Assembly (NCBI GenBank): GCA_039586795.1
Contig: JBDHJS010000065.1
Span: 1 to 24,098, forward strand
DNA: 24,098 nucleotides
Reading direction: 5' to 3'
Source: Gemmatimonadota bacterium
Lineage (GTDB): Bacteria; Gemmatimonadota; Gemmatimonadetes; Palauibacterales; KS3-K002
Part shown: positions 9,001 through 18,000 of the stretch, one piece after another
How positions within the stretch are numbered: the first letter of the stretch is position 1
How the letters are laid out: every line of letters starts with the position of its first letter
Position numbers: made by a program

Positions 9001-12000
9001 TCGTAGAAGGCCTGGACAGGATAGAAACGGTGATTCGGTCGGTTGGTGGGTGAAGGGGCTCGACCTGGCCATTGAGCATTGAGCGTTTGTCTGTTGAGCA
9101 TTACTGCAAAGCAATAGGGCCCATCCCAGTTTCCCCACCAGGACGGGCCCTACTATCTATAGGCTACCGACTACCAACCCTCAGTCGCCCCCAATCTCAC
9201 ACGTCTGCGTCTTCCCCTTCCGCACAAACGTCAACTCAACCGACCCCCGACGAATCAGCCGCCGGAACTCCGATATCGTCCGCACTCGTTCGCCGTTCAC
9301 CGCCGTAACCACGTCGAACTCTCGCAGCCCCGCGTTGTGCGCCGGCGTATCCTCGACCACTTCGACGATCAGCAGTCCGCCCTCGACCTCGAAGTACTCC
9401 GCCTGCTCGCCTTCCAGAACTTTAAACCGCGCCCCAGCCACCGCATCGCTATAGACCACCACGGTGCGCTCATCCGGCCCCGGTATCGTCACCTGCACGT
9501 CCGGCAAATCCTCGATCTCCACCGGCTTCACTCGCAACGTGCGCGCCGCCAGAGAGTCCGTCTGCATGCGGATCAACTCGTAAGATGCGGCCAACGCCAG
9601 GTTGATCGAGTCGATCTCCATTCTCAGGGTGGCTGCCAGCTCCTCCTGCTCCTCGGTCAGCGGACGTTGCAGCTTGATTTCCTTGAGCGCCTTCTCCGCA
9701 TCGTTCAATGCGACCTGTAGCGCCAGATGACCTTCCTTCAGCTCGATGACCTGGACGTAGACCGAGTCCCAATGCCCGGGCTCGACCCATACAAGCTCCT
9801 TGTCCTCGCCGAACGCATCTACTCGCGTGCCGGGAACGACCGTCAGCCTGACCTCCCGACCGTTGCGCCGGACCAAGAACTGCGCCTCCTGGCCAATTCG
9901 CAACGCCTCGAACGGCTTGTTCCAGTCCTTTTCCTCCGCCAGCACCCGGCCGTTGACGGAAATGATCAGATCGCCCACACGAAGGCCGCCCAGGTCGGCT
10001 GGGCTGCCCTCCCAGACCCGAGTGATCCACGGTTCCATCTGGTCCACGGGGAAATCGATCCCCAGCCATCCGCGGTTCGGATCCTTCTGGCCATACAGAC
10101 CTGATACCATGGCCAGCGTCATCATGAATGCCAGAAGCGTCCGCCCGCTCAAACGCTTGATGCTTCTCATAACTGCTATCTTCTAACCTCTCGCTGTCCC
10201 TTTACAAAAGAAAAGTGGCGATGAGCCTGCCCCAGCATCATCGCCACCGGTTCTGCGAACCCTGTGAATTACCCATCTGACGGATAACCGCGTCCCGCTC
10301 TTCAAGCGCCGCAAACAAATACGCGTTCAGAGTCGGGTTCGCCGGATCCGTCGCCAGCGCCGTTCTCGACGCCTCGACCAACGCGTTGAGCGACGCCAAC
10401 CGCTCCGCCGCTAACGACGGGGTCTGCGCTCCGCGCTCCGCCGCAAGTTGCTCCAGGTTGCGAAGCGCCACATCGTACTGCGCGCCTAAGCGCTGCACCT
10501 CCGCCAACGCATCCGTCAGAGACGTCGGAGGAAGCTGTGGCTCCTGGGTCGGCTGCTGCGCCACCAGGCCCGGTACGGGTGCGTCCATCGGCGCCGGCTG
10601 TTCCGGCTCCGTCCAACGACCCAGTCCAAGACCGATCACGAACACCGCCGCCATCGCCACCGCCTGCAACGCGACGAGCTTCGGCCAGCCCAGTTTGGCT
10701 CGGCGTTCGCGCTGTCCCGCCGGCAGTCGCTCGGCCACCGCATCCCAAATCTTGGGCGGCGCCTCCAGCGCTGGCAGCTCGCGAAGCTCTTCCCGTAGCT
10801 CTCTCAGCACTTCCAACTCGCCGCGACACACCGGGCACTCCGCCAGGTGCTTCTCCGCGCCCGCTACCGGCCCACCATCCAGCAGCTCCGAAAGTGCTTC
10901 GTTAGTTAGATGAACCATGATCTACTACCTCTTCTGATTTTTCCGTCACGAGCGACCTCAGCCGCGCCCGCGCTTTTGATAGCTGGGACTTCGACGTGCC
11001 CACCGCGATACCCAGCCGATCACCTATCTCCTCGTGCGTAAACCCTTCCACATCATGCAACCACAGCACCGCTCGATACCCATCCGGCAACTTGTCCAAC
11101 GCCCGCTGAACCATCAGTCGGTCCGCCGCTCCCGACGCCGGGTAGCGATCCGGGTTTCCCAGCGTCGAGCTCCCGTCGAAGCTCTGCTCCAGGTCCCTCC
11201 TTCGCGCCACCTGTCTCAATCGCGTCAGCGCCGTGTTCACCGCGATTCGGTGAACCCACGTCCCAAACGCCGCATCGCCTCGAAAGGCCCGGATCTTCTG
11301 GAACGCGTTCGCCCAGGCGTCCTGAGCCAGATCCTGCGCCAGGTCGTCGTCCCCGGCCAACCGCCGTACCACCGTATACACCCTCGACGCATGCCGCTCG
11401 TACAGCTGCTGCATCGCCTCGAGCTCCCCCTCGCAGGCCCGGCGGACCAGTATGGTCTCAGTCACGTCGACCAATACGTCCCTCCCAATTCCGTTATTTA
11501 GACGGGTGACCCCATCTGGGAGTTGCCTGCCATTAACCGCAGCATCCGCCTCAAGTACGGCGCCAGCCGCCAGGCCAACGGGACGAACAGCGTCGCCGCC
11601 AACCACCCCGTCAGCGCGTCAATTCCGTAATGAAACCTACCGTATACAGTGCTGACTGTGAGGCCCATCACGAACGGGAAGAACAGCGCCCAGACCAGCC
11701 GGTCCCGCCGCCACGTGACCGCCAGGATCGCCACCGCCACCGCCACGTGGGAGCTGGGGAATGCCGCACCCTTACTCCCCCCGTCCTCCAGCACCCAATG
11801 GACCCAGTTGTACCAGAAACCGTCCGCCAGAGCGCCTCCGATCAGCGGGAACTCGTAATGCGGGCCCTGGACCGGCCAGAAGATGAAGACCAGGTAGCAC
11901 CCGCAGAAGACGATGATCTCGGCGTAGACCAGGTCCCGCAGCCCCTTGATCCGTCCTCTCAGGTACATCAGCAACGCCGCCGTGGGCAGCATGATCCAGT

Positions 12001-15000: not shown

Positions 15001-18000
15001 CAACGAAACCGCCAATCGATGCGAACGACTTGCTGAACGTGCCGATCGTCAACGGCACCTCGTCCGTCATGTTGTGATACTCAGCCGTGCCAGCGCCCGT
15101 TGGACCTAGGTAGCCGATCGCGTGCGCGTCATCCACGACCAACAACGCGTTGTACTCTTCGCATAGCGGAACCAGGTTCGGCAGATCGGCGATGTCGCCC
15201 TCCATGCTGAACACGCCGTCCACCACAACCATGCGACCCTCGACACCCTTCGCTTTGTCACCTTCCAACTGGCGTCGAAGGCCGTCGTAGTCTCCATGGT
15301 TGAAGCGCGCCACGTCGCCGCGCGCCAGCCGGCTGCCGTCGACGATGCTCGCATGGTCCAATTTGTCCAGATATACCTTGTCGTTGCGGCTCACCAACGT
15401 CCCGATAACGCCCAGGTTGGTTTGATAGCCCGTTGAAAAGACCAGGCCCGCCTCTGTCCCCACATACTTCGCCAGCCGCTCTTCCAGTTCGTCGTGCAGT
15501 ATCGTGTTGCCGTTCAGAAAACGGCTCCCCGTGCAGCCGCTGCCGTACTTCTTGATTGCGGCCTGCGCCGCCTCTACGATACAAGGATGGTGGGTAAGCC
15601 CCAGGTAGTTGTTCGAGCCGACCATGATCCGCGGCTTGCCGTCGACGAACGCCTCCGTCGCCGTCGAGCCTTCGATCGGCACGAAATAGGGATAGTATCC
15701 GGAGGCCATAACCTCACGAGCACGCGTGAAACTATGGCACTTCTCGAGTATATACATTCTCCCTCCCCGGGAGCTTGGAACCGTCGAACGACCCTGCTAG
15801 ATTGGCAGTATTCATGTCGTGTGAGGCTACGAACGATTCTACCCGACTGGGCGCCACCGGGCAAGGTAGGGCGCCATAGCTCGTGTTTCGGCCTTTTTGT
15901 CGCCCGAGTATGAGCCGACTTCAACCCGATTGATCCATGCGCAGGCTAAAACGGAACGGCTTCACCTACGTCGAGATCATGACCGTCCTGGCGCTGCTCG
16001 GCGTCCTCAGCGTCATCATCTGGGCCCGCTACAACAAGTCCTATGAGAAGGCCCTGGAGGCCACCCTGGTCAGCGATATGCGGAACCTCATGACCGCTCA
16101 GGAGATCTACTTCCGCGACCACCTGACCTATGCCGTCAACATCGATGACGTGAGGATAACGCCCAGCCCCAAGAGCGATATCATGATCACCAGCGCTGAC
16201 ATCGTCGGCTATTCCGCCTGGAACCAGATCGAAAGAACCCCCAAGCGCTGTGAGGTCTACGTCGGCAGGACCCACGCATCGTCTCTCGGTATCGCGACCG
16301 AGTCTGAGAGGATCTTTTGCGCGATCTACTGACGGGGTCTCTTACCGATACCCAATCCACCCTGGCCGACATGACCAACACAACCCACGAAGCCTACGAC
16401 GTGGTAGTGATAGGCGCTGGCGCCGCTGGCCTCGTCACCGCCATCGGCTCGGCGGCCCTTGGAGCACGGGCCGCCCTGATAGAAAAGGACCGCTTCGGCG
16501 GCGAATGCTTGTGGACCGGGTGCGTCCCGAGCAAGGCGCTCATCCGTTCCGCGCAGACCCTCCACGATGCGCGGAACGCGGACGCTTTGGGACTCTCATC
16601 AACCCAGATCGATTTCGAATTCTCCAACGTCATGCGCAGCATGCGCGACGTCATCAAGCGCATCGAGCCACACGATGACCCCGTGACGATAAGGAAGAAG
16701 GGCGCCGAGCCCATCCACGGATCAGCCCGCATTCTCGCCTCCGGCCGCGTGGCGGTCGATGATGATGAGCTGGTCGCTCGGCACGTCGTCATCGCAACGG
16801 GTTCGCGCCCGATCGTTCCGCCCATCCGCGATCTCGAGCAGACGGGCTACCTCACCCACGAGTCCGCCCTGGAGCTCGAAGAGCAACCCAAGCGGCTCCT
16901 GATTCTCGGGGCCGGACCCATCGGCCTCGAGTTCGCCCAGATCTTCAGCCGCCTCGGAACTGAGGTCACGGTCATCGAGCTCTTCGATACCATCCTGCCT
17001 CGCGAAGACGCCGAAGCGACCGCCACGCTGCGGGAGATCCTGCAAGCGGAAGGCATTCGCTTCCTCCTCGGCCACAAAGCGATCGCGGCCGAAATTTCCA
17101 ACTCGGAAAAACGGCTCGTCGTTCGCAGACCTGACGGATCCGAGGAGCGCGTCAGCGGCGATCAGATCCTAGTCGCCACCGGCGTGCGACCCAACACCAG
17201 CTCTCTCGGTCTCGAGAACGCCGGCGTCGAGCTCGATCCCCGCGGCGCCGTACTCGTCGACTCCAAGCTGCGCACCACCGCCCGCGGCATCTGGGCTGCC
17301 GGAGACGTCACCGGCGCGCTGCTATTCACCCACGTCGCCGATTACCAGGCCCGCCTCGTCATCCGCAACATGTTCTTCCCCTTCCCCGCCAGCGCCGACT
17401 ACCGCCTCGTGCCACGCGCCGTCTACACCGACCCCGCCATCGCCCGCGTCGGCCTCACCGAGGAAGAAGCTCGCACTCACCACGGCGACCGCATCGCAGT
17501 CCACCGCTACCCGCTGGACGATTTCGATCGGGCGATCACCGATCGCGCCGCCTACGGCCTCGTCAAGCTCATCACCGATAGGCGCGGCCGCATCATCGGC
17601 GGTCATATTGTAGGAAGCCACGCCGACTCCCTCATCCACGAGATCGCACTCGCCATGAAGGCCGGCGTGAAGATTGGTGGCTTATCACAGATGGTGCACG
17701 CCTATCCCACCTGGTCGGAGGGGATCCGGCGCACGGCGGATGGCTACTATCGCGAAAAGTTCGCAGGCAGTCGGTTGAAAGGGTTGGTTAGGTGGTGGAT
17801 CCGTCGGTAACTGCGTCGATTACGATCACGAACACGAGCAAGAGCACACGTTGGCCGCATCCTGCTCACGCTCTTGATCGTGATCGGCCTCAAAACCCCA
17901 GTATCTCACGATACTCCGGATTAATCCGATCCGGCGACCAATAAGGCTCCCAAACCAACTCGATATTCGCCTCTTCAACTTCCTCCAACTCCATCAAAAC

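Follow-up and report, generated by a model that had tools for sequence, protein, structure and literature searches.

The synthesis of bacterial ceramides has been described as a pathway of three enzymes, a serine palmitoyltransferase (Spt), a bacterial ceramide synthase (bCerS) and a ceramide reductase (CerR), and their reaction steps have been demonstrated for homologues in Caulobacter (CCNA_01212, CCNA_01222) and Bacteroides fragilis (BF9343_4218, BF9343_4240); the supplement of PMC10865984 holds no data on CerR. In four Bacteroides species ceramide phosphoethanolamine (Cer PE) is the top sphingolipid, representing 35-81% of sphingolipid and reaching 81% in B. fragilis, a species in which no Cer PI was detected (PMC10056535). 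Inositol-containing sphingolipids have been linked to the PI-dihydroceramide synthase BT_1522 of B. thetaiotaomicron, described with BT_1523-1526: deletion of BT_1522 abolishes PI-DHC while PE-DHC stays (PMC9246714), and the mutant retains <1% of IPC (PMC8791184). Some Bacteroidaceae, however, produce PI-DHC without BT_1522 (PMC9246714). An EPC synthase was not found by BLAST with the insect enzyme (PMC8791184), and we did not find the enzyme for the commonest Bacteroides sphingolipid named in the literature searched. Gemmatimonadota are not named in the main text of the Black Sea paper on phyla with spt, bCerS and cerR, and our literature search yielded no report of phosphosphingolipids in this common soil and sediment phylum.

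The locus studied here lies in a stretch of 24,098 nucleotides (the window) from a contig of an uncultured Gemmatimonadota bacterium. It comprises the same three genes, clustered, and adds to the described pathway a fourth gene that is predicted to have the Aur1 fold and is coupled to cerR; the pathway is predicted here from its genes. The features are:

14570..15757, minus strand: spt, serine palmitoyltransferase-like PLP enzyme, 395 aa (NF047600, 506 bits; PDB 3a2b, 405 bits)
13404..14528, minus strand: bCerS, GNAT-type ceramide synthase, 374 aa from a likely GTG start (Pfam GNAT)
12415..13398, minus strand: cerR, NAD(P)-dependent SDR, ceramide reductase-like, 327 aa (Epimerase family; GGTGFVG and YxxxK)
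11498..12424, minus strand: PAP2_3 membrane protein, candidate ceramide phosphoethanolamine synthase, 308 aa (PF14378, 59 bits)
12415..12424, minus strand: 10-base overlap of the end of cerR with the start codon of the PAP2_3 gene, a junction common to Bacteroidaceae
10902..11474, minus strand: ECF sigma factor with a likely TTG start (Sigma70 r2/r4), directly downstream of the PAP2_3 gene
10238..10918, minus strand: anti-sigma-like gene (weak NCBIfam anti-sigma match, 34 bits, below cut-off)

The open reading frames of the four lipid genes agree in position and strand with those given in a preliminary description of this locus. The longest reading frame of bCerS starts at 14672, and the GTG start was placed from alignments of relatives. 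The ECF sigma gene follows the PAP2_3 gene in families f1 and f2, and none was seen behind it in the f3 and f5 regions; we regard it as a conserved neighbour and claim no tie to lipid synthesis. A promoter and terminator scan yielded a single promoter-like site (15864-15836), which is at chance level (1 found, 1.7 expected). Short near-identical pieces occur in three public RNA libraries and two of them span gene junctions (14464-14909 and 12341-12591), but these pieces are contigs that may be DNA and so do not demonstrate transcription or a single transcript. By their labels the libraries come from marine sediment and seawater, consistent with the habitat but no proof of it.

The genes spt, bCerS and cerR very probably constitute a ceramide operon. 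Spt resembles known Spt more than it does BioF, Kbl or HemA: among the NCBIfam models it scores highest on NF047600, the Spt of Bacteroidota type, although these 506 bits fall below the cut-off of 640, with BioF at 390 and Kbl at 374 bits, and in the PDB it matches Spt 3a2b best (Kbl 270 bits). It carries GTFSK at residue 239 and PAVP at 356. With the genes of a Bacteroides genome (G557) as queries, bCerS is the sole match in the genome for the putative G557 bCerS gene (26%, 143 bits) and the cerR of the window is the top match for G557 cerR (29%, 139 bits; 133 bits for a paralogue on C11); a PDB sequence search with bCerS gave nothing useful. The two G557 genes lie 22 ORFs apart, which is the published spacing of cerS and cerR in B. 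fragilis, and from this spacing they would be the counterparts of BF9343_4218 and BF9343_4240. The Spt score below the curated cut-off and the identities of only 26-29% of bCerS and CerR to the Bacteroides proteins would also fit enzymes making another amide lipid, capnine-type or otherwise amino-acid-based. This seems highly improbable, given that Spt scores 405 bits on 3a2b versus 245 on cysteate acyltransferase and that all three known ceramide genes are grouped. Two FAH-like ceramide hydroxylase genes had been listed for this genome, and two Scs7/FA2H-like hydroxylases were indeed found; a third fatty-acid-hydroxylase match (C44) sits in a carotenoid cluster and was not counted.

The order spt-bCerS-cerR-PAP2_3 recurs in no fewer than three families of the class. 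The operon had previously been called family-wide and tied to marine-sediment Gemmatimonadota; its distribution extends beyond a single family and a single habitat group. Within the family we counted bCerS in 29 of 31 genomes, this genome included (28 had been reported), and the PAP2_3 gene, earlier noted in 7 of 11 short loci, stands directly behind cerR in 21 of the 28 regions from the family; six of the remaining seven regions stop at a contig end at most 554 bases from bCerS, and one has an N gap in cerR. In the phylum sample 113 of 201 genomes possess the PAP2_3 gene, and all 113 are bCerS carriers.

The PAP2_3 protein is probably a head-group transferase, judging from its AlphaFold model (pLDDT 90.7) and its catalytic residues. 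The two best structural matches of the model are those of yeast Aur1 (9vj4 and 9ivc, TM 0.59, full length), followed by LpxE (0.39), SMSr (0.32) and also PgpB, and H226, H265 and D269 correspond to H255, H294 and D298 of Aur1. This triad is invariant in 25 alignment rows, and the PSSH and HYxxD motifs noted earlier proved invariant as well. Together, the Aur1 fold and this triad (His-His-Asp) make head-group transfer likely, although the identity to Aur1 is 16-17% and the fungal IPCS motifs are absent. The triad is, however, common to all PAP2 enzymes, and the gene's invariable link to cerR might reflect a role as partner, so that PAP2_3, co-translated with CerR, might be a lipid phosphatase or hydrolase (acting on ceramide phosphate or phosphatidate, for example) or a CerR helper instead of a synthase. 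When profile A1 was searched against the PDB, PgpB (E 0.003) did outrank Aur1 (E 0.04), but the PgpB match comprises the last 75 positions only, whereas that of Aur1 extends over ca. 215 positions and Aur1 wins structurally; the protein sequence alone retrieved nothing useful from the PDB. Phosphatases of the PAP2 type have the motifs C1 (K-x6-RP) and C3 (S-R-x5-H) with conserved, phosphate-binding Lys/Arg, and in the alignment PAP2_3 has no Lys/Arg at the corresponding places of VFIFWPVQGP and STVYGRFHYGID. We consider a phosphatase or helper unlikely.

For a transferase, the counterpart in Bacteroidaceae is informative. In Bacteroides, cerR and a PAP2_3 gene are the only genes of the operon that are still adjacent, and the Bacteroidaceae PAP2_3 gene adjoins cerR in all 29 loci examined (the best 29 of 68 positive relatives). 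It is present in 71 of 71 Bacteroides genomes, 61 of which carry the gene for MIPS, and in 69 of the 81 genomes of the family, where strong matches to BT_1522 number 15. From the ORF count, the B. fragilis gene would be BF9343_4239; no function for this protein was found in the literature searched. The Bacteroidaceae protein (L101:1114-2079) shares PVxGP, AAFPSSHV and TVY..xHY.xD with that of the window, as well as the position behind cerR and the 10-base overlap. With an ATG, GTG or TTG start, this junction occurs in 50 of 75 loci (Gemmatimonadota 22 of 44, Bacteroidaceae 28 of 30, other 0 of 1). The two proteins differ in a 25-residue insertion in the Bacteroidaceae protein and in the residue before the catalytic His, which is Ala there and Phe in the window. 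They share just 27-32% identity, and related enzymes can differ in the donor that they choose.

On a profile of the cerR-adjacent Bacteroidaceae proteins the PAP2_3 of the window scores 113.5 bits, versus 21.9 bits on a BT_1522 profile. Trees unite the Gemmatimonadota and cerR-adjacent Bacteroidaceae proteins with an SH-aLRT of 92 in a quick tree and support of 89/91 in a subsequent 41-row subset; the branch joining the two groups is not starred, and in the AU test on the subset a tree grouping the Gemmatimonadota proteins with BT_1522 was not rejected (p 0.075). The genome holds three close PAP2_3 paralogues, as reported before, in different cassettes. By BLAST alone, the C11 paralogue (88.6 bits) is a slightly better match to the G557 protein than the operon copy is (83.2 bits), so that the operon copy was chosen as the counterpart by gene context. 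When the Bacteroides protein was used as query in a Bacteroidota-wide sample, 60 of 201 genomes were matched, mostly weakly, and only 2 of the best 29 non-self loci from this search fell in the ceramide-linked group, so that PF14378 alone is no marker of this clade.

The preliminary description predicted inositol phosphoceramide membranes. Its ceramide synthesis and Aur1-like head-group transfer are supported by our data, but the step to inositol phosphoceramide is not; PAP2_3 is the counterpart of BT_1522 neither by profile score nor by gene context. BT_1522 shares the Pfam family and the triad with PAP2_3, but only 62 residues align (28 bits) and BT_1522 falls in a distinct, long-branched group. 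The IPCS2 core G-x3-G-L-x-R-x-D, read by eye, is present in BT_1522 and Aur1 and absent from alignment A1, and HHY, found in 16 of 16 rows of the BT_1522 group and reflected in H293-H294 of Aur1, is FHY in the window. An IPC synthase, transferring phosphoinositol from PI or PIP onto ceramide, would nevertheless agree with Aur1, itself such a synthase, being the best structural match, with the outcome of the AU test, and with the presence of MIPS and PIP synthase, which are indeed close in sequence to the Bacteroides enzymes (58.6% and 40.9%), in a genome where no closer counterpart of BT_1522 was found. These inositol genes are, however, unlinked to the operon, unlike in the BT_1522 system, and occur class-wide, also where bCerS is missing: MIPS is found in 36 of 39 f4 and 22 of 24 f6 genomes, of which only 3 and 1 have the PAP2_3 gene. 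Being near-universal in the class, MIPS tracks the class and not the operon, and its co-occurrence was rejected as support for IPC. MIPS was not found in G557, G027, G359 and G283, all of which have a ceramide-linked PAP2_3 gene and psd, whereas G041 lacks both MIPS and the PAP2_3 gene and keeps spt-bCerS-cerR, as an inositol link would predict. Misses of MIPS can be assembly gaps, as in G231, where the contig breaks off within the cluster and none was scored for that reason. Neither MIPS nor PIP synthase was detected in 80 metagenome loci, a PgpA-type PIP phosphatase was not found, PI is not among the listed major lipids of two cultured relatives, and in B. thetaiotaomicron the cerR-adjacent counterpart does not substitute for BT_1522. 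The inositol phosphoceramide reading is thus poorly supported, and an IPC synthase seems distinctly unlikely, although the residual IPC of the BT_1522 mutant and the PI-DHC formed without BT_1522 indicate that the clade of the window may also accept inositol.

If PAP2_3 is a transferase, an ethanolamine head group is somewhat favoured. We tentatively propose that the product of the operon is a phosphosphingolipid, most probably ceramide phosphoethanolamine, and that PAP2_3 is the CPE synthase. PE would be the most likely donor by analogy with the Bacteroides counterpart; its pathway (psd-pssA) is present in the genome, and the two cultured relatives have PE and an unidentified aminolipid among their major lipids. 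The main text of the two isolate papers makes no mention of sphingolipids. In the proposed route, Spt would form 3-ketosphinganine by condensing serine and an acyl donor, bCerS would add the second chain and CerR would reduce the keto group. PAP2_3 would then work like Aur1: H265, activated by D269, would take the phospho-head group from the glycerophospholipid with release of diacylglycerol, and H226 would activate the ceramide 1-hydroxyl, the acceptor of the head group. The donor range may also be different or broad (PG, or several phospholipids), the head group then being set by the phospholipid pool, and the C11 and C68 paralogues may supply other head groups. The residue before the catalytic His, which is F, M, V, N or A in different members of the clade, the spread of the paralogues over different cassettes, the residual IPC of the BT_1522 mutant and the PG and DPG among the major lipids of isolates all fit such an enzyme. 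With a broad enzyme, however, one would expect more PI-DHC to persist in that mutant, and it is Cer PE, not Cer PG, that forms the core sphingolipid of the four Bacteroides species, which makes a broad-donor transferase rather unlikely.

As a CPE synthase, PAP2_3 of the window, with its Bacteroidaceae counterpart, would supply a candidate for the enzyme that produces the commonest sphingolipid of Bacteroides. It is possible, though still more tentative, that the cerR-coupled clade as a whole represents a bacterial CPE synthase, an ancient fourth ceramide gene that Gemmatimonadota and Bacteroidota have in common, together with its conserved translational junction. If true, this would name the synthase of what is the most abundant sphingolipid in human gut Bacteroides, and with the candidate a single gene of a tractable species, one knockout could separate the effects of CPE from those of total sphingolipid loss. 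It also warns against taking every Aur1-like gene for an inositol enzyme. Phosphosphingolipids are thereby predicted for a common soil and sediment phylum, and, if the proposed function is correct, phosphoethanolamine ceramide would be a hidden major lipid of most Gemmatimonadetes, perhaps the aminolipid of the isolates.

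The window is contig C14 of a genome of 4.68 Mb (97.8% complete), assigned to Gemmatimonadota by the sources named for close PAP2_3 relatives. Its four-gene cluster is real and very probably an ordinary operon for ceramide synthesis:

11498-15757, minus strand: operon, four ORFs
14570-15757, minus strand: spt, Spt-like PLP enzyme
13404-14528, minus strand: bCerS, GNAT protein, from a likely GTG, starting 41 bases past the spt stop
12415-13398, minus strand: cerR, SDR
11498-12424, minus strand: PAP2_3 membrane protein, its start overlapping the last 10 bases of the SDR gene

Downstream of PAP2_3 (9181-11474), an ECF sigma factor gene comes first, then an anti-sigma-like gene and one for a PDZ protein; among the regions compared, the sigma gene occupies this position in families f1 and f2 only. 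Elsewhere in the window, a 1782-aa protein truncated at the contig start (42-5390) carries 12 CARDB repeats together with a BACON domain and, at its C-terminus, a domain of the beta-lactamase family, and two HEAT-repeat genes and another ORF lie at 21551-24086 on the minus strand, with an M23 peptidase and an Ada-type repair gene close by.

Among NCBIfam models, Spt scored best with the Bacteroidota-type Spt (506 bits; cut-off 640), ahead of BioF (390) and Kbl (374), and its closest solved structure is Spt 3a2b. The accessible part of a preprint (10.1101/2023.05.23.541633) reports that B. fragilis knockouts of cerS (BF9343_4218) and cerR (BF9343_4240) gave the expected intermediates, and the order of the pathway steps is taken from the accessible part of PMC11087976. 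Proteins of a Bacteroides genome (G557) served as reference for bCerS and CerR; its bCerS homologue and SDR lie exactly 22 ORFs apart, a spacing that matches these tags and from which we infer that they are the respective counterparts. The window GNAT protein is the sole match in its genome to the former (26%, 143 bits), and the window SDR is the best match to the latter (29%, 139 bits; runner-up 133).

The preliminary description rightly regarded bCerS as widespread in the family (29 of 31 genomes); with weak matches counted, it occurs in 134 of the 201 genomes of the phylum sample. The comparison drew 28 bCerS regions from the family, representing 27 of its 28 positive relatives, and added those of 32 hand-picked genomes out of the 133 other positives. 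PAP2_3 follows cerR, as had been proposed, in 21 of the 28 family regions, the remainder stopping at contig ends (6) or containing an N gap (1). The operon extends beyond one family: PAP2_3 also follows cerR in 9/9 f2 and 9/10 f3 regions. It follows bCerS in all three f5 regions (order cerR-spt-bCerS-PAP2_3), and is not in the operon in the regions of f6 (2), f7 (1), f8 (1) and f10 (3) and in two of three from f4, the third having it close by on the opposite strand. Genome-wide, the PAP2_3 clade was found in 113 of the 201 genomes, all of them bCerS carriers when the lists were compared. Of 80 metagenome loci, 51 extend at least 1.2 kb upstream, and 45 of these hold cerR or bCerS; MIPS and PIP synthase were found in none of the 80. 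These counts cover related, and thus not independent, genomes and take in four flagged as unpublished (G054, G094, G154, G179), on which no single claim depends. Some bCerS homologues of f6 and f10 (L090, L091, L096-L098) have neither cerR nor a close spt inside the fetched region, and in one otherwise intact operon (L065, genome G220) bCerS is split into three pieces in different frames, through assembly error or decay. The open literature, to which our search was confined, held no report of Spt or sphingolipids in Gemmatimonadota, nor of a PE-ceramide synthase in bacteria or of the locus tags neighbouring cerR in Bacteroides, and the accessible parts of 10.1101/2025.05.02.651985, PMC10865984, PMC11324152, PMC10783122 and PMC12619533 added none. 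The Black Sea paper, in its accessible part, raises the candidate phyla from 9 to 40, and the ceramide genes of Gemmatimonadota may therefore already be listed in earlier surveys.

In an AlphaFold model of the window PAP2_3 protein (pLDDT 90.7), yeast Aur1 is the best structural match (TM 0.59, ranks 1-2), and LpxE, PgpB and SMSr rank below it. In PAP2 phosphatases, the Lys and Arg of their motifs bind phosphomonoesters; both residues are absent from the window protein. Three invariant residues, H226, H265 and D269, correspond in the alignment to Aur1 H255, H294 and D298, the triad for which the accessible part of PMC13133130 describes a two-step mechanism. The Aur1-like fold, the invariant triad and the missing Lys and Arg make it likely that the protein moves a head group from a phospholipid onto ceramide. 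Against such a transfer, the top PDB sequence-profile match is the phosphatase PgpB, over a short stretch. A PgpB-like lipid phosphatase is unlikely, even pooled with a hydrolase or a CerR helper: the structural ranking places Aur1 ahead of both PgpB and LpxE.

The genome holds two further PAP2_3 paralogues. On C11 (L262, 8035-11622, minus strand), a cerR-like SDR and a paralogue with an equal 10-base overlap are accompanied by an HpnA-like SDR and a CPBP membrane protease; this cassette, which has no spt or bCerS, duplicates the cerR-PAP2_3 pair. On C68 (L263, 117940-124806, minus strand), a radical SAM gene, whose best NCBIfam model is Tes (53 bits, far below cut-off), directly precedes the third paralogue, followed by a GMC oxidoreductase and a TPP enzyme. 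Two close FA_hydroxylase paralogues (L265:3224-3949 and L267:4579-5247) are both unlinked to the operon, the former matching yeast Scs7 (E 3e-24). A third PF04116 match faces carotenoid genes read from sequence (lycopene cyclase, desaturase, phytoene synthase) on C44 (L266, 46185-50389).

B. thetaiotaomicron, whose inositol cluster we located by a published primer, possesses besides its PI-dihydroceramide synthase BT_1522 a second full-length PAP2_3, directly behind its own cerR. The window-clade profile gives this second protein 135 bits and BT_1522 14; conversely, the window protein scores 113.5 bits on the profile of the cerR-adjacent PAP2_3 and 21.9 on that of BT_1522, with which its alignment covers 62 residues only. 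cerR adjoins the second PAP2_3 in all of the best 29 loci from 68 positive relatives. The 10-base junction recurs in 28 of 30 Bacteroidaceae loci and in 22 of 44 loci of the window's phylum, many outside this count having the same frame opened by CTG or being cut. Trees place both ceramide-linked groups together with the two paralogues of the genome, apart from the BT_1522 group; this joining has moderate support (SH-aLRT 92 in a quick tree of 90 rows, which omits 9 fragments or duplicates as well as surplus near-copies, and 89/91 in a tree of 41 rows). Two more Bacteroidota PAP2_3 groups (L107-L133), neither ceramide-linked nor BT_1522-like, have YHY or FHY at the catalytic His.

The preliminary description took the window PAP2_3 for an inositol phosphoceramide synthase, which now appears improbable. 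HHY and the G-x3-G-L-x-R-x-D motif, common to BT_1522 and Aur1, are both absent from the window clade, and four genomes with ceramide-linked copies (G557, G027, G359, G283) yielded no MIPS. In favour of that assignment, an AU test did not reject a grouping of this phylum's proteins with BT_1522 (p 0.075), and one genome (G041, 99% complete; L089) retains spt-bCerS-cerR while neither PAP2_3 nor MIPS was found. The reported matches of MIPS (58.6%) and PIP synthase (40.9%) to Bacteroides proteins were reproduced; both genes lie on another contig than the operon (C49:15276-17289, L264), ahead of thymidylate kinase, and no PgpA-family phosphatase was found in the genome. MIPS occurs in 176 of the 201 genomes, even in f4 (36/39) and f6 (22/24), where bCerS occurs in 5 and 9 genomes and the PAP2_3 clade in 3 and 1. 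Inositol lipids are thus probable in the class, and MIPS tells little about the operon.

In the alternative held most probable of the readings compared, PAP2_3 would pass phosphoethanolamine from phosphatidylethanolamine to ceramide, forming ceramide phosphoethanolamine. psd-pssA is present in the window genome, and psd accompanies the ceramide-linked copies in G557 (one contig), G027, G359 and G283. The accessible parts of PMC7844134 and PMC11651109 list PE and an unidentified aminolipid, and not PI, as major lipids of two isolates. Published genetics fit an ethanolamine role: as far as the accessible texts go, loss of BT_1522 removes PI-DHC and leaves PE-DHC (PMC9246714), and PMC8791184 reports <1% IPC remaining and no EPC synthase found by BLAST. 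Some Bacteroidaceae make PI-DHC without BT_1522 (PMC9246714, accessible part); a broader donor range of the ceramide-linked PAP2_3 is therefore possible, if still rather unlikely. The cerR-adjacent gene occurs in 71/71 Bacteroides genomes and MIPS in 61/71, one counted miss (G231) being an artefact of a contig end; in the family sample (n=81) the figures are 69 and 63, with 15 strong BT_1522 matches. By elimination and co-occurrence, ceramide phosphoethanolamine synthesis is the leading candidate role for the cerR-adjacent Bacteroides PAP2_3. The value of the operon's fourth gene is that it points to this Bacteroides gene, unstudied and present throughout the genus, as the prime candidate for the ceramide phosphoethanolamine synthase.
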